This document shows, piece by piece, positions 3,167 to 47,797 of a DNA stretch of 47,797 nucleotides. The notes under the pieces are model-generated. The model made no database searches, was not told the origin of the DNA, and saw nothing but the letters and a program-made list of their open reading frames with translations. Origin of the DNA: a virus (taxonomy: Duplodnaviria > Heunggongvirae > Uroviricota > Caudoviricetes). Positions within the stretch are counted from its first letter, which is position 1. Each line of letters opens with the position of its first letter. The position numbers and the translations under genes were made by a program. The stretch lies in the IMG/VR virus record IMGVR_UViG_2571042438_000008, one strand, 5' to 3'.

Positions 3167-3783
3167 TGGCATTCAGAATGAGTGAACAATCACGTACCGT
3201 AAAAATTTATAACCTGCTGGCCGGAACTAATGAGTTTATTGGTGAAGGTGACGCATATATTCCACCTCATACAGGGCTGCCAGCTAATTCTACAGATATC
3301 GCCCCACCGGAAATTCCTGCTGGCTTTGTGGCAGTTTTTAACAGTGAAAATGAATCGTGGAATATTGTTGAAGACCATCGTGGTAAAACGGTCTATGACG
3401 TGGCGTCGGGGGACGCATTGTTTATTTCTGAACTCGGACCGCTACCAGAGAATGTCACCTGGTTGTCGCCAGCAGGGGAGTATCAGAAGTGGGACGGCGT
3501 ATCCTGGGTGAATGATGAGGAAGCAGAAAAACTGTTTCGGATACGGGAAGCGGAAGAGAAAAAGGCAAGGTTGATCCAGGAAGCAACAGATAACATCGCA
3601 ATTCTGCAGGATGCAGTTAATCTTGAAATAGCAACAAACGAGGAAAATTCACAACTGGATTCCTGGAGAAAATACAGAGTATTAGTGAGTAGAATTGACA
3701 CCAGTACAGCTCCGGATATCGTATGGCCAGAGCTGATGAATCAGGGTTATGTTCGGGAGGACGAGCAGATAACTTCAGACTGA
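3166..3783 (+). CDS. Tail fiber assembly protein (gpG/Tfa-like)
   Basis: Start overlaps the fiber stop (TAATG); size and position typical of Tfa chaperones. Confidence 0.65.
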
Positions 3784-4310
3784 AATTTAGTGATGAATGT
3801 TGAATCATCAGGAATATCATGCAATACCAATGCATGAGCACCTATTGTGACATTGTTTCCTATACGCACTTTGCCACCAAGAATGGTGGCATTACAACCA
3901 ATGGTCACATTATGCCCTATAACAATATCCATATCATTAAATTCCCCGCGAAGTCCAATAGTTACTCCGGGCTTAATTGAACAATTTTCACCGATTGTTA
4001 CTTTGTGACCGATAACAACACTGTTGAGATAAGAAATATCAAAGCCTTTCCCTATATTTACAGTTAAAGGGACTGTTACATTATATTTATCAAGAATGAA
4101 ACGTTCTATTTTTCCCGCAATCTTCCGACAGTATCCGCCTTTATCAAAAAGGTATTTGGCTATGCGCCACCAAAATAAATAACGAACCCTTCTATGTTTT
4201 ATTGCGCGAACAATTGCCTTTCGCCAGGAGAAAGGACGCTCGCTACCGATTACTTCATAGTGAATACAGTCTTTAAGTTCATTAATATTCATATCTTTAT
4301 TATTCAGCAT
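3747..4310 (-). CDS. Hexapeptide-repeat (left-handed beta-helix) acetyltransferase, moron-like
   Basis: Repeated [LIV]-G-x-x-x-x hexapeptides ([47 protein letters not shown]); opposite strand to the tail operon. Confidence 0.6.
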
Positions 4311-4725
4311 AAGATAATCATGTGACCAATTATTGTAATAATTTTAATGGTATGTTTCTACTGGCTATCCAGCGTGTCTGATATCCAGTAACAAATCGTC
4401 AACACGGGTGCAATCAAATGGTGAGTGTTAAGACTGACCACTTATTACCAGGTATGAGTGGCCAGCATTAAATCAGAACAGCCCTTTAACTGAACTGGCC
4501 GCGCTGTTAAGGGATGATGTCACCTTATCTTTGAAGCCGGACAGCATATTGCTGAACGATGAGTTTACCGCAGGTTTCTGGCTGGGAATCATTGACTGGA
4601 GTTAGGCCAGTAGTATGATGCTCGCAAAACGAGATCCAATTTAGATCCTTTTACTGGTGGATTATCGTTCGATCAGTGAGAGACTTCGTGCATGACCGAA
4701 AGTGTTGTGGTAGAGTTCTCTTAAA

Positions 4726-4740: not shown

Positions 4741-4780
4741 TATGATTGTGGGTGTCTGGTTGGAAAGTGACCAGATATGG

Positions 4781-4861
4781 AAACAAAAAGCCCGCAGATA
4801 AATCTGCGGGCTTCTTGCGACATCCACGGAAAACCAACAACTAACCATGGGCGCCTCGACA
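4781..4861 (-). ncRNA. Candidate CopA-like antisense RNA of the repA leader (~80 nt)
   Basis: Minus-strand perfect -10 TATAAT (plus coords 4868-4873) with weak -35; minus-strand intrinsic terminator (10-bp GC-rich stem 4789-4812 followed by a U-run); lies inside a 16-bp inverted repeat of the leader (4823-4838 / 4875-4890). Confidence 0.45.
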
Positions 4862-4905
4862 ACTCCCATTATACGTTGGTTTTCCGTGGACGCAAGAGCG
4901 AACAT

Positions 4906-5754
4906 ATGGATAGACCAATGCCGTCTCTACGTTCAGCTTACGTTTGTAATTTGTCGCCGGAGTTCCAGCCTCCAAAGCACCATACGCACAAGCTGCCGCT
5001 GGTGTTATCTGATGCTTTACAGCGCATTAATGGGCGTGATCTTACGTGTGAGGTTGCGTTCTACGTTAATCAACCGTCAGAGCGGAAGCGCCGGATAAAC
5101 GAGCATCGTCGTCGGGCGATTAATGCTGTGATCGCTGCGATTTTGCACCATGTAAACATCATTTCTAAGCGGGTTCTGGCCAGTGCTGAGGCGTTGGCTG
5201 ATTTTTGCGGCCTGTCTACCGTATCCGAAGCTGGGAACAAGTCTATAACGCGCTGTACAAGGGCGTTGTCGCAACTGAAAGCGTTAGGTTTTATTGATTA
5301 TGAACGTCGCTGGGATCGGGTGAATAAACAGTATTGGCCAGCGAAAATAGAGATTCGTGATCAACTGCTGGAAACCGTTGGTATTACTGAACAAGCATGG
5401 AGACGTGCGGTTAGCCAGAAACTTAATTACTTCAATGCGAAGAATAGCGAACGGCTTAAAAAAGCGATAACGGAGGCTGATTATAAGCGTATTGTTATTC
5501 AGGAGCAGATGGAGAATGTATGGCATCAGAGGAAGACGGCCAGAGAGATAAAGGCAAAACAGAAAGCAGCGGAGAGAGCTGCGCGTCTTGTTCGGGAAAA
5601 GGGAGAGGCCGAACTTCGTCATCAAATCACTAGAGAGGTTAGCCAGGAATTTGCTGATGGCATGTATCCTGGAGCTGACCTTGCATATTTACGATCCCTC
5701 GTTGAGCAGCGTTATAACAGGTTAAGAAAGACCTGGAAATCACTCCAACATTAA
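4906..5754 (+). CDS. repA: Replication initiator RepA, IncFII (RepFIIA) family
   Basis: Translation aligns with R100/R1 RepA1 as recalled (RRRAINAVIAAIL..., SITRCTRALSQLKALGFIDYE vs SITRATRALTFLSELGLITYQ); start chosen at the in-frame ATG 4906 by length; the ORF is open upstream to 4777. Confidence 0.85.
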   Translation: MDRPMPSLRSAYVCNLSPEFQPPKHHTHKLPLVLSDALQRINGRDLTCEVAFYVNQPSERKRRINEHRRRAINAVIAAILHHVNIISKRVLASAEALADFCGLSTVSEAGNKSITRCTRALSQLKALGFIDYERRWDRVNKQYWPAKIEIRDQLLETVGITEQAWRRAVSQKLNYFNAKNSERLKKAITEADYKRIVIQEQMENVWHQRKTAREIKAKQKAAERAARLVREKGEAELRHQITREVSQEFADGMYPGADLAYLRSLVEQRYNRLRKTWKSLQH

Positions 5755-6385: not shown

Positions 6386-6685
6386 ATGGAGATGGTTATG
6401 GATAAAGATACTGTTTTAAAAATGTTGAATCCGGCTTGTTTAAAAAAAGCGGATGAATGGGAATCTCCTACATGTGGAGAAGTTCGGGCAGTCATTGGCC
6501 TCACCGGAATGAGTGGCTCGCAGTTGGCCAAAAAACTAGGCTTAAAAGATAGTCGCAATGTTCGCAACTGGCAGATGTTAAAGGAGTCCACATCCAGATC
6601 CAGCATTCCGTATGCAGCCTGGGCGCTGCTGTGTTACTTCGCTGGGTTAGGGTTAATCTTCATTGATAACAAAACAGATGTTTGA
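6386..6685 (+). CDS. Small XRE-type HTH protein with hydrophobic C-terminus
   Basis: HTH-like segment LTGMSGSQLAKKLGLKDSRNVRNWQ; C-terminal AAWALLCYFAGLGLIFI. Confidence 0.4.
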   Translation: MEMVMDKDTVLKMLNPACLKKADEWESPTCGEVRAVIGLTGMSGSQLAKKLGLKDSRNVRNWQMLKESTSRSSIPYAAWALLCYFAGLGLIFIDNKTDV

Positions 6686-6972
6686 AACATGCAAATATGA
6701 GGTTTGTTATGGAACTTGTACGCAAAACACGCAAAGAGTTCTTGGACCTGTATCGCATGGGAGCTTTCACTTGTGTTGTGGCTACCCAGGACGAAGTGAC
6801 AAAAAGCTGGCGGCTTTTTGCTCTCAATAAAAAAGGGATTGCCGTTTTCATTGAAAAAGCCCGTGGTGGTATCCGCGAATGGGCGGGATTGAATTATGTG
6901 GCTGATTTTTGCGCAGCTATGGGGATTCGTCGCTGGGAAGTCCATATGCCAGGAGTAAAGTCACAAAAATAG
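6682..6972 (+). CDS. Hypothetical protein, translationally coupled to 6386..6685
   Basis: ORF with 4-nt overlap to the upstream gene; no recognisable motif. Confidence 0.3.
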   Translation: MKHANMRFVMELVRKTRKEFLDLYRMGAFTCVVATQDEVTKSWRLFALNKKGIAVFIEKARGGIREWAGLNYVADFCAAMGIRRWEVHMPGVKSQK

Positions 6973-7113
6973 GGCTTTCGCGTCGAAAATGAGGCGAAAC
7001 TGAAAACGAGATTTCATTAACAAATAAGCAACATAAAAAACGGTGGAAAACGCCCAGGAAAACATGATCTTTTGAGCGGATTTTTTAGATCCGACAATGA
7101 ACGGTGATCCGGT

Positions 7114-7141
7114 GGTGCCGATAACGTCCATTATGTTAAAT
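7114..7141. other. Xer (XerC/XerD) site-specific recombination core, dif/cer-like multimer resolution site
   Basis: GGTGCCGATAA-CGTCCA-TTATGTTAAAT; right arm identical to the dif XerD arm, left arm 9/11 to the dif XerC arm, 6-bp spacer. Confidence 0.6.
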
Positions 7142-7216
7142 AGCCCCGTTTTTCTTGAAATTATAACCCACAGGTTATATAGTTAGTGATATAAACTACA
7201 GGTTATAGGATTGAGC

Positions 7217-7564
7217 ATGTGGACGGTACTTTTTAGCCAGCGATTTGACGACTGGCTAAATGAGCAAGAAGACGCTCTTCAGGAAAAGGTTTTGGCTGAT
7301 TTGAAAAAGCTACAGGTTTACGGACCTGAGTTACCCAGGCCATATGCCGATACCGTAAAAGGTTCTCGGTACAAAAATATGAAAGAGCTTCGCGTTCAGT
7401 TTTCTGGCCGTCCGATAAGAGCCTTTTATGCGTTCGATCCGATTCGTCGGGCCATCGTTCTTTGTGCAGGAGACAAAAGTAACGATAAGCGGTTTTATAA
7501 AAAACTGGTGCGTATAGCTGAGGATGAGTTTGCAGCACATCTGAACACACTGGAGAGCAAGTAA
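7217..7564 (+). CDS. Type II toxin, HigB/RelE-like (addiction module killer family)
   Basis: ~115 aa basic protein immediately upstream of, and overlapping (TAATG), an XRE-HTH antitoxin-like gene; AGGA RBS before ATG 7217. Confidence 0.55.
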   Translation: MWTVLFSQRFDDWLNEQEDALQEKVLADLKKLQVYGPELPRPYADTVKGSRYKNMKELRVQFSGRPIRAFYAFDPIRRAIVLCAGDKSNDKRFYKKLVRIAEDEFAAHLNTLESK

Positions 7565-7863
7565 TGAGAACATTAGATGAGGTGATTGCCAGCCGTTCAC
7601 CTGAAAGCCAGGCGCGAATTAAAGAAATGGCAGATGAGATGATTCTTGAGGTCGGCTTGCAGATGATGCGTGAAGAACTCCAGTTATCACAAAAACAGGT
7701 TGCTGAGGCGATGGGTATAAGCCAGCCAGCAGTAACAAAGCTGGAGCAGCGCGGAAATGATTTAAAGCTGGCGACATTAAAGCGTTACGTTGAAGCTATG
7801 GGAGGCAAATTAAGCCTGGATGTTGAGCTTCCTACAGGAAAGCGAGTAGCGTTCCATGTCTAA
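7564..7863 (+). CDS. Type II antitoxin, HigA-like XRE-family HTH
   Basis: HTH segment LSQKQVAEAMGISQPAVTKLE; 99 aa; toxin-first gene order. Confidence 0.6.
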   Translation: MRTLDEVIASRSPESQARIKEMADEMILEVGLQMMREELQLSQKQVAEAMGISQPAVTKLEQRGNDLKLATLKRYVEAMGGKLSLDVELPTGKRVAFHV

Positions 7864-8335: not shown

Positions 8336-8448
8336 TATTTATATAATTATAGATTTATATAAAAAGTGCTTTACGGGTGGGAAAAAATTTCCTATGGTTA
8401 TACCCGAAACCGAGCGATACCCGCCCTGGTTAAACCGGAGATAACCCG
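8336..8448 (+). promoter_or_regulatory. Promoter-leader cassette, copy 1 (AT-rich dyad motif, -35 TTTACG 8370-8375, 17-nt spacer, -10 TATGGT 8393-8398, conserved leader, GGAGA RBS)
   Basis: ~88 bp near-identical to 17311-17398 and 24189-24276 (two substitutions seen in this copy); sigma70-like hexamers with 17-bp spacing. Confidence 0.55.
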
Positions 8449-8829
8449 ATGAGCATGATTAAAATCCGCAAAAACGCTTTCCTTAAAATTCAAACTATCC
8501 TGGCTGGTTCTGTCGGCGTGATTTGCCGTTCTTCTTCAAGCCGCATCGATGACGGCTACGATGATGAGTATCGTGTGTCCTCGTGCGATGAGGCTTTAAC
8601 CTGGCTGAAGGAGAATCAGGAACGTGCCCAGGTATATCTGGAAACAGAGAACGGCAATCAGATGCTGCGTATTAGCGGTCGTTATGGATTTGAAACTACA
8701 TTCATGGCCTATTTTAATCAGGCTTACTTTGACAAGGAGCTGGCCTGGTACACTGACCGCATGAGCAAAAGCGAGCCAGCCCCGATTACACCGCCGAACA
8801 ATAAACCATTTTTATTCCTCGTTAAGTAA
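8449..8829 (+). CDS. Hypothetical protein (126 aa), first gene after cassette copy 1
   Basis: ORF with GGAGA RBS 9 nt upstream; no recognisable domain. Confidence 0.5.
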   Translation: MSMIKIRKNAFLKIQTILAGSVGVICRSSSSRIDDGYDDEYRVSSCDEALTWLKENQERAQVYLETENGNQMLRISGRYGFETTFMAYFNQAYFDKELAWYTDRMSKSEPAPITPPNNKPFLFLVK

Positions 8830-12782: not shown

Positions 12783-13451
12783 TTATGCGGCAGTAGTCAG
12801 AGCCTCAAGCTGGTTGATAATCCCCTGAATAACGTCGTCTGCCTTTTTGCGTGGCGCAACGTATGAGCACTCAATGAGGCTTAAGCCCTTATCCTGAGCT
12901 TTGCTCAGAGCTGGCTTGTGGGGAATGTACTTATCGACAACAAAGTATGGCGTATTAGCCAGGTACTCTTGGGCTTCAATATAGTCAGCTTCGTTTTCAG
13001 CCGCGCCGGAAAACACCATGCAAATTTTCTTGATTGGTACACCCTTTTTAACGATGCCGTGAGCAGTGTTAACGGTGGTTTCCAGGTCATCGGTAGAGAA
13101 TCGGGTTGGCAAAATAACCATATCCAGAAATTCAGATAGCTTCGGTACTGATTCAGATGCGTAGGCACCGCCATCGACGATAACCAGGTCGTATACTTCT
13201 GATTCGATGATTTTCTGGACTTGTGATGGTGTGCCGCACGGCTGCGCCGCGATTGCTGGTTCGATATTGTTGGCCATTCTGCGTTGTACCCAACGCGTTA
13301 CCGTTCCGTTAAGCACATCCATATCGATCAGGCATACATTCCAGCCAGCCTTTGCATAAGCAACTGCTAAAGCACGGGCAATTGTTGATTTGGTTACGCC
13401 GCCTTTTCCGTTGAAAATACCTACAGAGATAGTCATTTGTCGAGGCTCCAT
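12783..13451 (-). CDS. parA: ParA/ParF-type partition ATPase (type Ib)
   Basis: Deviant Walker A GIFNGKGGVTKST; ~220 aa; the true start may be the ATG at 13436, which has a GGAG RBS. Confidence 0.85.
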   Translation of the reverse strand: MEPRQMTISVGIFNGKGGVTKSTIARALAVAYAKAGWNVCLIDMDVLNGTVTRWVQRRMANNIEPAIAAQPCGTPSQVQKIIESEVYDLVIVDGGAYASESVPKLSEFLDMVILPTRFSTDDLETTVNTAHGIVKKGVPIKKICMVFSGAAENEADYIEAQEYLANTPYFVVDKYIPHKPALSKAQDKGLSLIECSYVAPRKKADDVIQGIINQLEALTTAA

Positions 13452-17286: not shown

Positions 17287-17404
17287 AATCTATAAATATA
17301 TAATTATAGATTTATATAAAAAGTGCTTTACAGGTGGGAAAAAATTTCCTATGGTTATACCCGAAACCGAGCGATACCCGCCCTGGTTAAACCGGAGAAA
17401 TCTG
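17287..17404 (+). promoter_or_regulatory. Promoter-leader cassette, copy 2 (dyad AAATCTATA-N12-TATAGATTT, -35 TTTACA 17327-17332, -10 TATGGT 17350-17355, conserved leader, GGAGA RBS)
   Basis: Near-identical to copies 1 and 3 over ~88 bp; 17-bp spacer. Confidence 0.55.
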
Positions 17405-18472
17405 ATGAATAAACAAGTAATTATTTCTGACTGGATCAACAACCCTAACAGCCTGTTAAGCACTGATACTGGCTACCTATTACGCCATGTTAATGGTCGT
17501 ATGGTCAAAAGCGATGAGCACGAAACCTTTTTCTTTGTTGAAGACGATGGGCGTATCTATGAGGATGGTTACTCTTATGAAGCCCAAACTGGTTGTATCC
17601 CTGCGGAGCTGGTGGACGTAACAGAAGATCTGCGCAAAGCATGGCTTGAACAGCAGCAGCGCGGAGATGATTACGTAAACACCTATCAGGAACGCCAGAA
17701 CGCGCGTCTTGCCCGATATATTGCTCGTGCAGAAAAAGCCAGAAAAGAAGGTGCGGTAGCGCATAAGCGAGCGCATGACCTGTTGGATGTGATCCCGTTA
17801 GGCCAGCCGATTTTAGTTGACCATTATAGCGCGAAAGGCCATCGCCGCCGTTTGTCTAAAGCTGATGCGTTATTCAGAAAAGCGTTTGTTGAATGCGAAA
17901 GTAAAGCATCACACTACGAGAGCAAAGCCGCAGGTGTTGGTCGTAATGGAATTTCGTCTGATGATCCTGATGCGCTATTTAAGTTGCTTCGTAAGCTGCA
18001 AGGCTGCATGAAGTCACACGTCAAAATGAAGGCCGCAAATAAGGCCATTCGCAAATACAAAAAAGACCAAATACAGCAGCTTTCTGCATTAATCGATCTC
18101 AGGTTTACAGAAAGCGAAGCCAAAGAGTTACTGGCCGGAGATTTCTGTGGGCACATCGGATTCCCTTCATACGCACTGAGCAACAATAACGCCGAAATCA
18201 AACGACTACAGAGCCGTATTAAGGAGCTTGAATCGGTCAAGTCTGTAACAGGAGCACAGCGCGAAGAATACGACGGCTTTTCTATGGAGATAGATCCAGA
18301 GGATAACCGCATCCTGTTTTATTTCCCTGGCAAACCAGAGGCAAACATTCGTTCGCTGCTTAAATCACGCGCCTTTAAGTGGAGTCCAACCCGTAATGCA
18401 TGGGTTCGCAAGATTACTCCAAACGCCCTGGCTGATGCCCGATATCTAAAAGAATCGCTATTGAAAGCCTGA
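17405..18472 (+). CDS. Large hypothetical protein (355 aa), first gene after cassette copy 2
   Basis: Start set at ATG 17405 (GGAGA RBS); the upstream ATG 17351 lies in the conserved leader. Confidence 0.6.
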   Translation: MNKQVIISDWINNPNSLLSTDTGYLLRHVNGRMVKSDEHETFFFVEDDGRIYEDGYSYEAQTGCIPAELVDVTEDLRKAWLEQQQRGDDYVNTYQERQNARLARYIARAEKARKEGAVAHKRAHDLLDVIPLGQPILVDHYSAKGHRRRLSKADALFRKAFVECESKASHYESKAAGVGRNGISSDDPDALFKLLRKLQGCMKSHVKMKAANKAIRKYKKDQIQQLSALIDLRFTESEAKELLAGDFCGHIGFPSYALSNNNAEIKRLQSRIKELESVKSVTGAQREEYDGFSMEIDPEDNRILFYFPGKPEANIRSLLKSRAFKWSPTRNAWVRKITPNALADARYLKESLLKA

Positions 18473-23583: not shown

Positions 23584-24171
23584 ATGGAGGCAATTGCATT
23601 GTTTAATCTGATTTATGCAGATCCCCCCTGGGAATACAAAGATAAGTGTAAGGATGGGAATCGTGGAGCTGGTTTTAAGTATCCAACGATGAAAGCTGAG
23701 GATATTGCTCGTATTCCTGTCTGGCAGCTTGCTAATCCTGAATCGTGTTTGTTGGCCATGTGGTGGGTTCCGACTCAGCCAGAAGAAGCGTTGCTGGTGG
23801 TGAAAGCATGGGGATTCAGGCTTATGACCATGAAGGGCTTCACATGGAACAAATGTGGTAGCCGACAACCAGATAAGCTGGTGATGGGGATGGGGCATAT
23901 GACTCGTGCAAACAGTGAAGATTGCTTGTTTGCGGTAAAAGGCAAATTGCCGACCCGCCTTGATGCGGGGATCATTCAGTCGTTTACATCGCCTCGTCTG
24001 GAGCATTCTCGGAAGCCTGATGTGGTTCGTGACAAGCTGGTAAGGCTGTTAGGTGATGTTCCTCGTATTGAGCTGTTTTCTCGCGGTGATTTACCTGATG
24101 GTTGGCATGGCTGGGGCAACCAGTGCAATGGAGGTATCCAGTTGCATGATGCTCTCTGGCAAGTGGCATAA
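23584..24171 (+). CDS. MT-A70-family N6-adenine methyltransferase
   Basis: DPPW motif (LIYADPPWEY) and family-typical N-terminal layout. Confidence 0.8.
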   Translation: MEAIALFNLIYADPPWEYKDKCKDGNRGAGFKYPTMKAEDIARIPVWQLANPESCLLAMWWVPTQPEEALLVVKAWGFRLMTMKGFTWNKCGSRQPDKLVMGMGHMTRANSEDCLFAVKGKLPTRLDAGIIQSFTSPRLEHSRKPDVVRDKLVRLLGDVPRIELFSRGDLPDGWHGWGNQCNGGIQLHDALWQVA

Positions 24172-24282
24172 AATTATATAATTATATATTTATATAAAAA
24201 GTGCTTTACAGGTGGGAAAAAATTTCCTATGGTTATACCCGAAACCGAGCGATACCCGCCCTGGTTAAACCGGAGAAATCTG
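24171..24282 (+). promoter_or_regulatory. Promoter-leader cassette, copy 3 (-35 TTTACA 24205-24210, -10 TATGGT 24228-24233, conserved leader, GGAGA RBS)
   Basis: Near-identical to copies 1 and 2. Confidence 0.55.
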
Positions 24283-24552
24283 ATGAAAGTACAAGACCGT
24301 GAAGTAGTAAAAAACCTCCTGCAATACCTGACCTCAAAAAACCTGACGGGCAGCGTTGAGTTCCGTGAAGCGTTAAAACATTTCAACGTCACTACGGTTT
24401 ATCGTTGGGAAAACAAACATTCTGAAAGACCGTATGTGGTGGATGTTTTTGCGCCTGATATTGAGTGCGGTTTTGAGCGTCATTCGTTCAAGGAGAAACA
24501 TTCTGCTGATTTTTTTTGTGAGGTTGTATGTGCGGCAGGAGATGATGAGTGA
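24283..24552 (+). CDS. Hypothetical protein (90 aa), first gene after cassette copy 3
   Basis: Start set at ATG 24283; the upstream ATG 24229 lies in the conserved leader. Confidence 0.5.
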   Translation: MKVQDREVVKNLLQYLTSKNLTGSVEFREALKHFNVTTVYRWENKHSERPYVVDVFAPDIECGFERHSFKEKHSADFFCEVVCAAGDDE

Positions 24553-26155: not shown

Positions 26156-26779
26156 ATGACAAAACATCTTAATGTGGTTTCTTTACCACTTTCTGTGTTG
26201 ATTGGTTATGAAAAGAACGCTCGCACACACTCCGTGGAGCAGGTAGATCAGATTGTTGCCAGCATACAGGAGTACGGATGGACTAATCCGATCCTGATAG
26301 ACGAGAACAACGTTGTAATTGCTGGTCATGGTCGAATTGCTGCGGCCACTCAGTTGGGGATGGATGAGGTTCCCTGCATTGTTCTGGAAGGGCTAACGGA
26401 GAATCAGAAGAAGGCATATCGTCTGGCCGACAACCGTATTCCGCTGAATGCTGGTTGGGATGAAGAGTTGTTAAGCGCGGAGCTTGCAGATCTTGCGGCC
26501 GATGATTTTGCTCTGGACTCAATTGGTTTTACTCAGCGCGAACTGGATAACTTATTGAGTGCGGCGGTCTACGATGACACAGAGGGTATGGATATCCCAT
26601 TTGAGAAGGATGAGGCCAAATCAGGCGTAAAAGTTCAGTACCTGTCATTTGGAGGTCATAAAATCCCGGCAACGGATGAGGAAGCGGATCGTTTTGACTG
26701 CGCGGTGTCTCGTTATGTTGATGATAATGGCAGCTATATCGGATTTGTATCCGCATTGCTGGCTGGGGAGGTGTGCTGA
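26156..26779 (+). CDS. ParB N-terminal (ParB/Srx nuclease-like) domain protein, paralog 1
   Basis: LIDENNVVIAGHGRIAAATQLGMDEVPCIVL; paralogous to 29446..30036. Confidence 0.7.
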   Translation: MTKHLNVVSLPLSVLIGYEKNARTHSVEQVDQIVASIQEYGWTNPILIDENNVVIAGHGRIAAATQLGMDEVPCIVLEGLTENQKKAYRLADNRIPLNAGWDEELLSAELADLAADDFALDSIGFTQRELDNLLSAAVYDDTEGMDIPFEKDEAKSGVKVQYLSFGGHKIPATDEEADRFDCAVSRYVDDNGSYIGFVSALLAGEVC

Positions 26780-28152
26780 TGCTTCACCTCAATTACGACA
26801 TAACGCACCTACGCGGCGCGGAATATAACCCGCGTTTTATCGGTGAGGATGATCTTGCGAGGCTGGCGGAAAGCGTCAGGGAGCTGGGGCTTGTGAAGCC
26901 ATTGATAGTGCGCGGCGATTTGCTGGTGGCGGGACACCAAAGGACGAAGGCGCTACGTAAGTTGGGAATAACGCGTGCTGCGGTGTATGTGTTGCCCTGT
27001 GAAACGACGGTATACGACGAAGTACGGTTTAACCAACTGCATAACGGAACGGATTTTGATAGCGGAGATGAGCGTTGCAGGGTGTCCGGTCTGGAAGATA
27101 AGCATGGTTTTGTTCAGGTATCGGCAAGCCAGATCTCAGGCAATATGCGCGCGAAAATGGCATATGTTCGAAAGAACATAGCGGAACTGGTTATCAAGTA
27201 TGGTCCGTGGGGTGGTTGTGTTGCTACTCAGTCTGGCGAGGTTATTCACTGTGCTCAGTATGCATTAGCAGCGAAGATGACGCGCACACCGCTAACGGTG
27301 TTTGTGATCCCTGATGTTGAGAAGGAAAAATACCAAAGTTATCTGAATAAAACTTATGGTGTATTTGAGTATTCTCATCTGGAGAAAACAACATACATCC
27401 AGACGTATGCGCAGCTTATGCGGTTGCGTAATGGTGGCAGCCTGAAATCAAACCTGTATGAGTCGTTGATCCTCCCGATCATTGCCAAGACGCCAAGAGG
27501 AATTGATTTTGGTTCGGGGCAGGGAGACTACGCGCGAATGCTCAGGGCAAAGGGATATAACCTGCATGATCTCGAGCTTTTCCGCCGTAAGGGCGCTGGA
27601 AACACTCTGGATAGGACCGCAACAAACCGGATGATTGATACGCTGGTGGACGACTTAAAAACGCGAGGGCGTTACGACTACGTGATTTGCGATAGCGTTT
27701 TGAACTCGGTCGATAGTGTCGAGGCTGAATGGTCCGTTCTGACGGTTCTGAAAGGCTTGTGTAAAGCTGGTGGGTCAATATTCTTTTCTGGCCGTAGCCG
27801 TGGAGAGCTGGAAACCGTCCTGAAACAAACACAAGCGGCGAGTTCCAAAAGCCGGCTTTATTTTATTGATCATAACGGTTTTACCGCGTTGTACCGGAAG
27901 GGGCACTGGTTTTACCAGAAGTTTCACTCTGATGATGAAGTGAAGCAGTTGTGTCGTGTACATGGTTTCAGGATTAAGCGGTCAATATTCAACTGTAAGA
28001 GCTGGTATTTGCACGTCATTAACGATGATTCCCTTAGTTGGGCGAGTCTGGAGAAAGCTGTTCGTTTTGAGTTTGAGTTGCCGTTGCCTGGTGGTTCAAC
28101 AATCGGACGATCTGATGATGTGCTGGCGGCTTTCCGGCCGTTGATTAAGTAG
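26773..28152 (+). CDS. ParB N-terminal domain fused to a putative SAM-dependent methyltransferase domain
   Basis: N-terminal LVKPLIVRGDLLVAGHQRTKALRKLG (ParB-like); glycine-rich IDFGSGQGDYARML (motif I-like); no DPPY/NPPY seen. Confidence 0.55.
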   Translation: MLMLHLNYDITHLRGAEYNPRFIGEDDLARLAESVRELGLVKPLIVRGDLLVAGHQRTKALRKLGITRAAVYVLPCETTVYDEVRFNQLHNGTDFDSGDERCRVSGLEDKHGFVQVSASQISGNMRAKMAYVRKNIAELVIKYGPWGGCVATQSGEVIHCAQYALAAKMTRTPLTVFVIPDVEKEKYQSYLNKTYGVFEYSHLEKTTYIQTYAQLMRLRNGGSLKSNLYESLILPIIAKTPRGIDFGSGQGDYARMLRAKGYNLHDLELFRRKGAGNTLDRTATNRMIDTLVDDLKTRGRYDYVICDSVLNSVDSVEAEWSVLTVLKGLCKAGGSIFFSGRSRGELETVLKQTQAASSKSRLYFIDHNGFTALYRKGHWFYQKFHSDDEVKQLCRVHGFRIKRSIFNCKSWYLHVINDDSLSWASLEKAVRFEFELPLPGGSTIGRSDDVLAAFRPLIK

Positions 28153-29445: not shown

Positions 29446-30036
29446 ATGGCTCTAAAAATCGAATATTTACCAGTCGGTAAGCTGCTCAGATATGCCAAAA
29501 ATTCACGGACTCATTCAGATGAGCAAGTTGAACAGTTGGTGAACAGTATCCGTGAGTTCGGTTTCACTAATCCTGTGCTGATCGATGAAAAGAATGAACT
29601 GATTGCGGGGCATGGGCGGCTTGCAGCAGCCGAAATTCTGGAAATGGATAAAGTTCCGGCGATTCGGTTGAGTAACCTTTCTGAAAAACAGAAGAAGGCG
29701 TACAGGATTGCAGATAACAAGCTGGCCTTAAATGCTGGCTGGGATATGCAGCTTCTGGCCGAAGAAGTCAAAGAGTTAATGGATGATGATTTTGATATTG
29801 ATCTGCTTGGGTTTAATGATGCAGAGCTTGACGAAATGTTAAGCGATGAACAGCCGCAGGAAGAAGACGATAATTCTTCCCCTGTTGTTCAAATTAAGTA
29901 CCTGGCTATTGATAAAGAACGTATTCCCGCGACGGATATGGAAATTGCATTGTTGCTGGATGTTTATCGTCAGTACCACGACGCGCATGAAACGCATGAG
30001 GGATTTGTTCAGTATCTTGCTAATGGTTGCAAGTAA
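29446..30036 (+). CDS. ParB N-terminal domain protein, paralog 2, immediately upstream of terminase
   Basis: LIDEKNELIAGHGRLAAAEILEMDKVPAIRL; clearly alignable with paralog 1 over the N-terminal ~110 aa by eye. Confidence 0.7.
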   Translation: MALKIEYLPVGKLLRYAKNSRTHSDEQVEQLVNSIREFGFTNPVLIDEKNELIAGHGRLAAAEILEMDKVPAIRLSNLSEKQKKAYRIADNKLALNAGWDMQLLAEEVKELMDDDFDIDLLGFNDAELDEMLSDEQPQEEDDNSSPVVQIKYLAIDKERIPATDMEIALLLDVYRQYHDAHETHEGFVQYLANGCK

Positions 30037-40741: not shown

Positions 40742-43534
40742 ATGGCCAGCAATAAGAACTTTAAGCTGGCTTTTGAAATTGGCGGCAAAGTTGCCGCCTC
40801 TCTCCCCAAAAGTTTTACTACAGCTAATCAGGCTGTTGCTAAATTAAATGCCGAGCTTGCTGGATTAACGAAAGAACATGGGGAAATTCAAAAGCTACAA
40901 TCTGTAAAAGTAAAGGTTGGACAGACTGCCCTCGAATATCATAAAGCTGCCGCTCGCGTTGAAGAGTTACAGAAGCAAATAAAAAACACGGCCAATCCAA
41001 CCAGAGCGATGCTTCGTGACTTTGAGAAGGCAAAAACACATTCATCGAATTTACGAGCATCACTACGTTCTCAGCGTGAAGAACTGGCCGCTTTAAAGTC
41101 TGCCTATCAGGGAGCTGATACATCTGCCAGAGCTTTGGCCTCAAGAGAGAAAGAGCTTAAAGCCAGCATTGATCGTAATCGTGAGGCTCAGGCCCGTAGC
41201 GTTGAGCAGGTTAACCGCTACAGAACGGCTTTGGCTTTAGCCAGAGCAAATGTTCAGCAAGTGAAAAAACAGCAGGAGGAACTTAACCGGGCATTAGAAA
41301 AACAACGTATTGATAAAATTAACAGCTATAAAAATGCGTTGGCTGAAGCACGGAAAAATGTTCTTGCAGTAAAACGTGCTCAGGAGGAGTTAAACCGCGC
41401 GTTGGAAAGGCAGCGTGAATTGAAGCGAGAGCATCTTGGTGAGGCAAAGAGTCAACTTGTAAGGTCAGGATTACAAACTGGTGCTGTAGCGGCTGGTGCA
41501 TTTGCTGCTGCTAACAATGCAGCAAATTTCAATCGTGAAAACAAAATGATTGGTCTTACGGCAGATATGAAGCCGGAAGAAGTTCAGGCGATGGGGCAGG
41601 CGATGCTTGTTACCGGAACGGCTACCAACCAGTTTGCATCTGATATTCAGGCCGCTCAGGGTTTTCTCGTCGCTGCTGGGCAGGATTATAAAGAGGCTCA
41701 GGCGAATCTACTAACTATTGGGCGAACAGCTACAGCTACTGGCTCTGATATCCTCGATGTCTCGAAAGCATCATTTACATTAAGTGACTCATTGAAGATT
41801 GATCCATCTCAAATGAAGTCTGCAATGGGGATTCTGGTTCAGGCAGGGAAAGAGGGGAACTTTGAATTTAAAGATATGGCCAAAAATCTTCCTGTGCTTG
41901 GTGCTCAGTTCCAGGCATTAAAAATGGGAGGTAAAGAAGCAGCCGCGACGATGGGTGCAGCTTTGCAGATAGCTCGCAAGGGGGCTGCAACTTCGGATGA
42001 GGCTGCTAATAATATGAACAACTTTTTGGCAAAAATACTTTCCCCTGAAACACTAAAAAAAGCAAAGAAAAATTTCGGTGTAGATTTATATAAAATTGTT
42101 ACAACAGCGCAGAAAAAAGGGAAGAATCCATTCGAAGCTGCAATGCATTCTGTCATGAAAATGACTAAGAACGGAGATCAGAAGTTACTTGGTGAACTAT
42201 TTGGCGATATGCAGGTTCAGAACTTTGTTCGTCCGATGATTCAAAACTGGAAGGAATACCAGAGAATCAAAGCAACATCTCTTGGAGCTGGAAGTGCTGT
42301 TATTGACCGCGATTTTGCCAACATAACGAAAGATAATGCGGAGCGATTGAAACAATTACGTATTCAGGCTAGCAATGCATCATTAAGTTTTGGTCAGGCC
42401 TTGCAACCTGCTTTGAATGCCGCGCTTAGTGTTTTGGTTCCGCTGATTACAAAAATTAGTGAATTTGTAGCTAACAACCCCAATTTTGTGTCTCAGATAG
42501 TGATGGCGGCAGGTGCGTTTCTAACCATGAAAAGTGTGGTTATAGCGTGTAGGGTAGCTATGCTGGCTTTATCTGTAGCGACAAAGCTAACACCCTTCGG
42601 GTGGATTCAGATGGCTATATCTGCGCTGGTTGCCGCAGGAATATTGCTCTATCAGAATTGGGATAAGATCAGAGATTATGCTGTCAGAGTTTGGCCTTCT
42701 GTTAAGGAATATACAGTTAAATCATTTGAGGCTATAAAAAACTTTATCTTAAACTTTGACCTCAATGGATGGATTATATCTATGTTTGGTAAAGCATGGG
42801 ATTATCTTTCCAACATAAACTGGAGTTCGGCAGGTGTAAGAATTTACAGTACATTAATTAGTGCTTTTAAATGGATGTCTCCGCTTCCGTTCTTAATTAA
42901 AGCATTTAAAATTACAACAAATTACCTTTCTGGCATTAACTGGAGCGAAACAGGAAAGAAAATCATAGATACACTGGTATCTGTTTTTATGCGTTTTTCA
43001 CCAGTTGGACTCTTTATAAGAGCATTCCAATCTGTAACGACTTATTTATCTGGAATAAACTGGAGTGAGTCAGGCGCAAAAATAATTGAGACGTTAATCA
43101 CTGGGATAAAATCAAAAGCAAATGCTTTAATTAATGAAGTGAAAGGCGTTTTTTCTTCTGTACGTGAGTATTTACCGTTCTCTGACGCGAAAAAAGGTCC
43201 ATTCTCACAGCTAACAAAGTCAGGTGGTGCAATAATGACTACTCTGGCATCAGGTGTTAGCAGGAATAACAGCTTACAGAATGCAATAGCAAGCAAGTTC
43301 GGGCAATCAAATTTATCACCTCACGGGATATCTGCCGCCGGGACTTCTGGACCTCGCCAGAACGTTAACGCTGTGACTGGTGGAATAACCTATTCACCTG
43401 TAATCAATCTTCCGGCTGGTTCACCAAAGGAAACTGAGGCGGCAGCTAAAAGAGCATTAGATGCGGGATATTCTGATTTTGAGAAGAAATTGAGTGCTCA
43501 TATGTTCCAACAACGGAGATTAAGTTTTGGATGA
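40742..43534 (+). CDS. Tail tape measure protein
   Basis: 930 aa; long coiled-coil-like N-terminal half, hydrophobic segments, repeated W-containing motifs (GINWSE). Confidence 0.85.
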   Translation: MASNKNFKLAFEIGGKVAASLPKSFTTANQAVAKLNAELAGLTKEHGEIQKLQSVKVKVGQTALEYHKAAARVEELQKQIKNTANPTRAMLRDFEKAKTHSSNLRASLRSQREELAALKSAYQGADTSARALASREKELKASIDRNREAQARSVEQVNRYRTALALARANVQQVKKQQEELNRALEKQRIDKINSYKNALAEARKNVLAVKRAQEELNRALERQRELKREHLGEAKSQLVRSGLQTGAVAAGAFAAANNAANFNRENKMIGLTADMKPEEVQAMGQAMLVTGTATNQFASDIQAAQGFLVAAGQDYKEAQANLLTIGRTATATGSDILDVSKASFTLSDSLKIDPSQMKSAMGILVQAGKEGNFEFKDMAKNLPVLGAQFQALKMGGKEAAATMGAALQIARKGAATSDEAANNMNNFLAKILSPETLKKAKKNFGVDLYKIVTTAQKKGKNPFEAAMHSVMKMTKNGDQKLLGELFGDMQVQNFVRPMIQNWKEYQRIKATSLGAGSAVIDRDFANITKDNAERLKQLRIQASNASLSFGQALQPALNAALSVLVPLITKISEFVANNPNFVSQIVMAAGAFLTMKSVVIACRVAMLALSVATKLTPFGWIQMAISALVAAGILLYQNWDKIRDYAVRVWPSVKEYTVKSFEAIKNFILNFDLNGWIISMFGKAWDYLSNINWSSAGVRIYSTLISAFKWMSPLPFLIKAFKITTNYLSGINWSETGKKIIDTLVSVFMRFSPVGLFIRAFQSVTTYLSGINWSESGAKIIETLITGIKSKANALINEVKGVFSSVREYLPFSDAKKGPFSQLTKSGGAIMTTLASGVSRNNSLQNAIASKFGQSNLSPHGISAAGTSGPRQNVNAVTGGITYSPVINLPAGSPKETEAAAKRALDAGYSDFEKKLSAHMFQQRRLSFG

Positions 43535-47261: not shown

Positions 47262-47797
47262 TATCTTTAATGTTAGCTTGTTGGATGTTTTACCTCCTAA
47301 CTTAGCTAGCGATCCCAACGTGATAGCTATGTCGAAAGCTATTGATGATGAACTACAAGCAATTAACAATTTAATATATAAGACAGAAATATATAGCGTT
47401 GTTGATAACCTGGACTCAGTTGTTCTCGATCATTTAGCTTGGCAATGGAATGCTGATACATGGAGGGATAGTTGGCCTGTATTGTTAAAGCGTTCTGTTT
47501 TTAAATCAATAATACGAACAAAGCGAATAAAGGGTACAAGGGCAGCGGTTGAAGATGTAGTAAATAGCTTGGGTGGAGAGGTAAACATAACAGAATGGTT
47601 TGAAACATCACCACCTGGCGAACCATATACAGCCTCAATTGTTGCTTCGATTAACTCTTTTGATGGTGCTGTTCCTTCGAAAGAGATGTTGGAGGATACG
47701 TTAAGAAGTATCAAGAGTGCAAAGTCGGCAAGAACACTATTTACATTTTCGCAAGCAACCAATGTTTCAGGTGGTGTTGGTATTGTCGGTGCTTTCC
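47254..47797 (+). CDS. Baseplate gpI-like protein, 5' part (open at window end; continues at 1..289 through the terminal duplication)
   Basis: ATG 47254 overlapping the gpJ-like stop; ORF not terminated within the window; frame matches 23..289. Confidence 0.65.
   Translation, partial: MADIFNVSLLDVLPPNLASDPNVIAMSKAIDDELQAINNLIYKTEIYSVVDNLDSVVLDHLAWQWNADTWRDSWPVLLKRSVFKSIIRTKRIKGTRAAVEDVVNSLGGEVNITEWFETSPPGEPYTASIVASINSFDGAVPSKEMLEDTLRSIKSAKSARTLFTFSQATNVSGGVGIVGAF
47547..47797. repeat. Terminal direct repeat: 47547..47797 is identical to 1..251
   Basis: Read directly: both begin ggttgaagatgtagtaaatagc and end gtcggtgctttcc. Confidence 0.9.

Follow-up and report, generated by a model that had tools for sequence, protein, structure and literature searches.

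The locus lies in a 47,797-nt stretch of viral DNA (hereafter the window), between the gene of an IncFII-family RepA (4777–5754) and a higBA-like toxin–antitoxin gene pair (7217–7863). It comprises about 150 bp of noncoding accessory sequence (6964–7113), which on the plus strand abuts a 28-bp Xer-type recombination core (7114–7141). The two ends of the window overlap exactly over 251 bp (1–251 and 47547–47797), thus the sequence represents a complete closed circular contig with an assembly overlap, and the true size of the element is about 47,546 bp. Judged by its gene content, this 48-kb E. coli virus is a phage-plasmid: besides repA and a parA gene on the minus strand (12783–13451), it carries head genes (lambda-type terminase, portal, ClpP-like protease, decoration protein, and capsid protein E), a P2-like contractile tail with baseplate typical of a myovirus, lysis genes (holins and a GH108 lysin), and a cI-like repressor. 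N-terminal ParB/Srx domains were also seen in three ORFs located just upstream of the terminase genes (26156–26779, 26773–28152, and 29446–30036), the middle one having a fused methyltransferase domain. Extra BLAST matches revealed a sequence of about 114 bp in three dispersed copies (8339–8452, 17297–17409, and 24171–24287; 94–98% mutual identity, judged through the copies of the relatives), and it may represent a regulatory or promoter region that is repeated in the phage-plasmid.

The window showed 98–100% identity to 47–49-kb plasmids of E. coli, E. albertii, E. fergusonii, and Klebsiella aerogenes, and over the replication/higBA region it was 99% identical to the Yersinia phages vB_YpM_39, 41, and 44, whose isolation host is Y. 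pestis EV76. Among 5,426 complete E. coli genomes, 72 contained members of this phage-plasmid family, that of ATCC 25922 being one of them. No published name for the 48-kb family was found in the literature searched, and its assignment to the “pSLy3” phage-plasmid group proved wrong, as pSLy3 is a 114-kb, SSU5-related element. The 276-bp region surrounding the site (6940–7215) occurred at 108 places in 107 of the 5,426 genomes, and all 108 were on plasmids and none in a chromosome; together with the closed circular form of the window, this bears out the plasmid lifestyle proposed in the original prediction. In PLSDB, approximately 59 plasmids had the head genes of the family and approximately 61 contained the site region at ≥95% identity, suggesting that essentially every family member carries the site. 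One PLSDB entry, NZ_CP032086.1 (94,204 bp), is about twice the family size and contains the head-gene block in two copies, thus it is probably a head-to-tail phage-plasmid dimer or an assembly duplication.

The core is composed of the predicted XerC-binding arm GGTGCCGATAA (7114–7124), the 6-bp central (strand-exchange) region CGTCCA (7125–7130), and the predicted XerD-binding arm TTATGTTAAAT (7131–7141), all read on the plus strand. The inner arm positions of GGTGCCGATAA-CGTCCA-TTATGTTAAAT are symmetric (ATAA/TTAT), as in the Xer-core architecture, and by its sequence the segment is a canonical 28-bp Xer core. When both strands of the 47.8 kb were searched with the dif arms (6-nt spacer, up to three mismatches), 7114–7141 was the sole match, and none of 100 dinucleotide-preserving shuffles contained a dif-arm match. 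As predicted, the right arm is identical to the XerD half-site of E. coli dif and the left arm is dif-like, differing from GGTGCGCATAA of dif only at positions 6 and 7 (9 of 11 identical). The spacer of dif is likewise 6 bp long; however, its sequence is TGTATA and dif lies at the terminus, whereas the core of the window is located on a plasmid beside a replication gene and is flanked by accessory sequence. The central region had been likened to those of both cer and psi. Alignment of the cores upheld the comparison with psi, placing the site in the 6-bp class of psi and dif, but not that with cer, since the central region of ColE1 cer, located in the reference record, is 8 bp long (TTAAGGGA). 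The psi site of pSC101 resembles that of the window in having a 28-bp core with a 6-bp central region, the TCCA tetranucleotide within it, and no ARG box. Its XerD arm (TTATGTTAAAC) differs from TTATGTTAAAT at one base and its XerC arm at positions 6–9 (GCGC in psi, CGAT in the window), and it belongs to a 9-kb plasmid instead of a 48-kb ParA-partitioned phage-plasmid.

A sensitive search of unrelated replicons was carried out with the 6940–7215 segment as a query. Homology in unrelated plasmids started at query positions 22–27, that is, at approximately 6961–6966, and segment identities were at noise level beyond −150. An alignment of 11 diverged sites including psi (alignment A2) was nearly gapless from −100 to the core. 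The conserved noncoding block is present only on the XerC side, and the conservation seen on the XerD side follows higBA. No annotated genes were found in the accessory region of the relatives, and a 56-aa ORF on the minus strand (6961–7131) had no Pfam match. The region originally delimited as 6999–7141 contains the core and a nearby palindrome, but its left boundary was set too far downstream, as the accessory sequence starts at about 6964.

The best-conserved block of the accessory sequence is a candidate ArcA-type box, TAACAAATAAGCAACA (7018–7033), in which 10 of 16 columns were invariant in alignment A2. It is identical at 14 of 16 positions to the TAACAAACTAGCAACA block of pSC101 psi (common 16-mer TAACAAA(T/C)(A/T)AGCAACA), and the distance from the start of the block to the XerC arm is exactly 96 bp in each of the two sites. 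The repeat unit of the ArcA box is TGTTA, and the minus strand of the block, TGTTGCTTATTTGTTA, contains two TGTT(A) repeats 11 bp apart. ArcA boxes consist of two direct repeats with 11-bp centre-to-centre spacing (PMC3798270); the pattern TGTT-N7-TGTTA has three occurrences in the window, where 0.48 would be expected. The same position (7018–7033) was marked as an ArcA site in the recent survey of Xer sites by Fournes et al. (2025; PMC11724359). Judged by sequence, a candidate ArcA-type site therefore occupies the same place as in psi, some 100 bp away from the core. Diverged ArcA-type accessory sequences were also detected in three further IMG/VR contigs of 47,026 bp (L031/L024), 44,780 bp (L037), and 47,212 bp (L045), where the boxes TAACAAATGTGCAACA, TAACAAATCAGCAACA, and TAACAAATTAGTAACA are all located exactly 96 bp from the XerC arm, and one of these sites has the psi central region GATCCA.

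A second conserved block, GAAAACATGATCTTTTGAG (7058–7078, plus strand), contains AAA (7060–7062) and TTT (7070–7072) trinucleotides that were invariant in alignment A2, and this AAA-N7-TTT pattern lies about 45–55 bp from the core. Many ArgR-type sequences described by Fournes et al. (2025; PMC11724359) include a T-rich run ending with G or A (e.g., TTTTG) at a similar core distance, and we infer that the block has a role in PepA binding. Searching the 6950–7113 segment for the ARG box TGMATWWWWATKCA with up to two mismatches gave no match, thus the site does not belong to the ArgR/cer type. This also agrees with the earlier statement that the imperfect palindrome TGAAAACGAGATTTCA (7001–7016), which lies immediately 5′ of the ArcA-type box, is not a canonical ARG box. 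The palindrome is indeed present, but as a binding site for an accessory protein the adjoining TAACAAATAAGCAACA box is the likelier candidate: a 5 + 5 inverted repeat of this kind is expected by chance, and in the relatives only its A-tract/T-tract (GAAA-N6-TTTT) is left, with the complementarity of the arms lost in alignment A2. Since it is kept only in this form, the palindrome is probably part of a flanking bent region contacted by PepA rather than a discrete operator. PepA is known for poorly specific binding around the ArgR/ArcA site (Fournes et al., 2025; PMC11724359).

Outside the two conserved blocks, the similarity to psi is weak. The accessory sequences of the window and psi showed 42% identity in register compared with 21–34% in shifted registers, their local alignment had a z of 2.4, which was reached by 33 of 1000 shuffles, and they are linked mainly via intermediates in alignment A2. 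The comparison with cer gave a z of 0.6, that is, no detectable similarity. Published accessory sequences are poorly conserved among themselves (Fournes et al., 2025; PMC11724359). The ArcA assignment thus rests on one 16-bp block and its spacing, because the rest is only weakly psi-like. The cer sites of ColE1 and related plasmids (including pPCP1) share with the window a core accompanied by approximately 150–200 bp of accessory sequence on the XerC side; however, cer differs in its longer central region (8 bp instead of 6 bp) and in possessing two features for which no match was detected in the window, namely an ARG box, situated some 100 bp away from the core, and the Rcd checkpoint RNA (no Rfam match). 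The CRP consensus core is TGTGA-N6-TCACA, and a perfect TTATGTGA-N6-TCACATAA palindrome matching it was noticed in pPCP1 (L005, approximately 1480–1500) at the position of the window's box. As pla follows about 130 bp further downstream, its regulatory region overlaps the accessory sequence of the Xer site there.

The search with 6940–7215 recovered the noncoding module from 24–30-kb MOBC/MPF_T conjugative plasmids, IncN and IncFII plasmids, Salmonella phage-plasmids, a 224-kb Phytobacter plasmid, and a 134-kb Erwinia plasmid. The match in Y. pestis pPCP1 was limited to the core and the proximal 83 bp of the accessory sequence (81% identity). An Xer core was present at the aligned position in every recovered locus, with the arms GGTGCCGATAA and TTATGTTAAAT in almost all, and the central regions found among these plasmid loci were CGTCCA, CGACCA, CGGTAT, and GATCCA. 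Scans of viral and genome collections added CGTACA, CGTGCT, and TACCCA, resulting in seven central regions combined with the same arms. Conserved arms enclosing a variable central region were seen in at least 20 diverged loci on IncFII, IncN, MOBC/MPF_T, phage-plasmid, and other backbones. In alignment A2, 9 of 11 columns of the XerD arm were invariant (the other two being ≥90% conserved), as were 7 of 11 in the XerC arm (positions 1–5 and 10–11, while positions 6–9 varied among the relatives), none of six in the central region, and 27 of 160 upstream. Constant arms with a variable central region are the rule for Xer sites, and variation at positions 6–9 of the XerC arm is usual (Fournes et al., 2025; PMC11724359). 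The arms were identical at 22 of 22 positions even where the accessory sequence and the neighboring genes had diverged to approximately 60–78%.

Several loci are mosaics in which the junction coincides with the core. The 128-kb E. coli plasmid NZ_CP027324.1 (L012, 2484–2934) has a cer-type accessory sequence and the core GGTACGTACAA-CAGGTG-TTATGGTAAAT, followed downstream by a higBA pair 96–99% identical to that of the window. Locus L006 shows 88–92% identity to the window upstream of the core and 96–100% downstream of it, and L049 has the core and the downstream DNA in common with L050–L052 but different upstream DNA. In pPCP1, the shared part comprises only the core and the proximal accessory sequence. 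Such breaks of homology at the core are what past recombination there would leave, although homologous recombination nearby might also have produced them.

On the XerD side, the core is followed by a promoter-like site, TTGAAA-17-TATAGT (7155–7183, plus strand), which starts 14 bp after the XerD arm and overlaps two operator-like 18-nt repeats, TATAAC..ACAGGTTATA (7162–7179 and 7190–7207, plus strand). This promoter/operator stretch (7155–7207) co-varies with higBA rather than with the accessory sequence and lies outside the Xer site. Pfam searches assigned the two genes downstream, both on the plus strand, to a HigB-like toxin of the Gp49/RelE-ParE family (7217–7564) and an XRE-HTH, HigA-like antitoxin (7564–7863). 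The higB START is 76 bp from the XerD arm in the window and 73–77 bp from it in at least nine diverged plasmid backbones. The xrs–higBA pair occurs on many backbones, and the site is found also without higBA (L011 and L016). In unrelated plasmids, a divergent ParA/ParG pair is often situated on the other side of the site; par, xrs, and the toxin–antitoxin genes together look like a stability cassette. Searching the 6600–7400 region against Rfam gave no match at E up to 1, so nothing there points to an Rcd-like RNA.

The original prediction had remarked that no integrase, resolvase, or telomerase was visible in the sequence, and named the finding of an overlooked recombinase gene by HMM search as one way to refute its reading. 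Pfam scanning, which covered every ORF of ≥150 aa (35 in total) and 13 smaller ones, detected no integrase, resolvase, invertase, large serine recombinase, or telomerase. The annotation of two near-identical plasmids likewise contained no recombinase apart from an IS3 transposase, which resides on an insertion in L018 that is missing from the window. The Yersinia-phage relatives possess a Hin-type invertase beside an alternative, second inverted tail-fibre set (L002, 16291–18593). In the window, the ORF at the position of hin (3747–4310, minus strand) encodes a hexapeptide acetyltransferase, and tblastn with the Yersinia-phage Hin found only a 10-aa C-terminal remnant (4563–4592), so that Hin is absent. 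When a second Xer site was sought that could form a pdif-like module, only positions 42727 and 43737 emerged; both are inside tail genes with at least five arm mismatches each, and these poor matches were judged to be due to chance. The second sheet of the supplement of Fournes et al. (2025; PMC11724359) was also considered as evidence for the lack of a recombinase and was set aside, because it is a list of replicons without xrs and is silent on recombinases.

Considering these results, we concluded that the 6964–7141 segment is probably a psi-type plasmid dimer-resolution site, an assignment that follows from the ArcA-type box, its exact 96-bp spacing, the 6-bp central region, and the lack of an ARG box. 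According to this model, the host XerC and XerD would bind the 28-bp core at 7114–7141, while host PepA and phosphorylated ArcA, the latter at the 7018–7033 box, would bind the accessory sequence of about 150 bp. By analogy with psi, when a head-to-tail dimer is supercoiled, its two accessory sequences, present as direct repeats, would interwrap around PepA and ArcA-P and trap three crossings, and the aligned cores would then undergo strand exchange in the 6-bp central region by XerC first and subsequently by XerD. The dimer would thereby be converted into monomers, which could be partitioned by the ParA system, and in this way the site is expected to contribute to the stability of the element. 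Besides the weak similarity to psi outside the conserved blocks, two points speak against this explanation. According to Fournes et al. (2025; PMC11724359), a plasmid of 30–100 kb usually has a recombinase gene of its own and no Xer site, consequently the 47.5-kb replicon would be atypical for its size. Furthermore, the site travels with higBA as a cassette, thus its presence could partly reflect hitch-hiking.

The core could alternatively work like the chromosomal dif; in this case, septal FtsK would activate XerD, and the upstream sequence would have no relevance. The XerD arm is that of dif, and psi can reportedly replace dif in the chromosome (Cornet et al., 1994). Moreover, 28-bp cores with a 6-bp central region form the only class shown to be FtsK dependent (Fournes et al., 2025; PMC11724359). 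Nevertheless, such a mode would leave the accessory sequence unexplained, as the 150 bp on the XerC side are conserved with fixed spacing across backbones and the ArcA box of psi falls on the best-conserved block among them. A dif-type site would consist of 28 bp without accessory sequence on a large replicon with KOPS polarity, whereas that of the window is accompanied by accessory sequence in a 47.5-kb element, and the survey of Fournes et al. (2025; PMC11724359) likewise scored it as having such a sequence. Hence, a purely dif-like function seems unlikely, even though the FtsK-dependent and the accessory-sequence modes are compatible with each other. Another explanation extends the hitch-hiking argument: the site would have been brought in by the higBA cassette and would persist as a passenger or relic, serving no purpose in the phage-plasmid. 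The mobility of the xrs–higBA pair among many backbones and the gap of only 76 bp between the site and the toxin gene would fit this view, but a relic would hardly retain 22 of 22 arm positions next to sequences diverged to the extent described above; in addition, the site is kept in essentially all family members, occurs in L011 and L016 independently of higBA, and the element has no other resolution system. We consider it improbable that the site is functionless.

It was also considered that the Xer site and the higBA promoter form one functional unit, namely a dimer checkpoint, in which occupancy of the core or the synaptic complex assembled on dimers would alter higBA transcription. This idea is based on the −35 box of the promoter lying 14 bp past the XerD arm, on the conserved higB spacing, and on the presence of the same higBA behind the cer-type site of L012. 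The analogous checkpoint of ColE1 cer is the Rcd RNA, whereas that of the window would act through a protein toxin. Under this reading, the dependence on ArcA would additionally link prophage stability to the redox state of the host. A checkpoint of this kind appears quite unlikely. Finally, dif-like arms in an element that encodes no integrase could indicate an attachment site for XerCD-mediated integration at the host dif, in the manner of CTX-phi or IMEX. This was rejected as extremely improbable because no chromosomal copy, as expected of an IMEX, stood beside the 108 plasmid copies in the 5,426 complete E. coli genomes; furthermore, the central region CGTCCA agrees with the dif TGTATA at only three of six positions, and the element is fully equipped to replicate and partition as a plasmid. 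Scanning of species-representative genomes for the same arms yielded five matches, of which L050–L052 carry a pM1-5_30-type plasmid accessory sequence and L049 shares its downstream flank with them. The fifth match was in a 3.2-Mb Paracoccaceae MAG chromosome and had unrelated flanks.

As a probable psi-type resolution site, the locus is a known kind of element, and its exact sequence was already catalogued computationally in 2025, therefore its novelty is low. In the survey of 981 enterobacterial replicons for Xer sites by Fournes et al. (2025, NAR 53:gkae1300; PMC11724359), the entry CP009861.1:23-178 (pECO-b75) of Supplementary File 1 is identical in sequence to 6986–7141 of the window, without a single difference, and this site is among four Xer sites described with ArcA-type accessory sequence. 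The plasmid itself (NZ_CP009861.1) is 99.2–99.6% identical to the window and belongs to the same plasmid family. The tables of that survey (PMC11724359) list the 28-mer and flag NZ_CP009861, NZ_CP009073 (a plasmid of ATCC 25922), and NZ_LN890526 as ArcA type. The same paper does not mention phages at any point, and the sites tested in it were those of R27 and large replicons. The only, modestly new angle is that the carriers of the site are functional temperate phages. In P1, the dimers of the prophage maintained as a low-copy plasmid are resolved by Cre/loxP (PMC7969092), and the phage-plasmid literature searched named such self-encoded recombinases for dimer resolution without mentioning Xer. 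Unlike P1 (Cre/loxP) and N15 (telomerase), which have self-encoded solutions, the element of the window encodes no recombinase and would borrow four host proteins. By this comparison, the whole E. coli phage-plasmid family, which has relatives among phages isolated on Yersinia pestis and comprises about 60 closed plasmids in PLSDB, appears to have outsourced dimer resolution to the host XerCD, probably with PepA and ArcA. This suggests that a temperate phage depends on its host in this respect and leaves the understanding of Xer recombination unchanged. The finding is useful for annotation, since the intergenic 180 bp were unannotated in every record inspected.

The scans of viral collections also revealed the same Xer arms with CGTACA or CGTGCT as a central region in 18 IMG/VR viral contigs of 12–58 kb (L020–L023, L026–L030, L032–L035, L038–L040, L044, L046, and L047). 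Their accessory sequence is different, and some 100 bp upstream it includes TTTATGCACGATTTATGCAG, which resembles an ARG box. Among them, one contig (L033) was examined, where the site is located between the replication/antiterminator-Q genes and the holin–lysozyme genes of a lambdoid-like element. Xer sites may be common in several phage-plasmid or prophage families.
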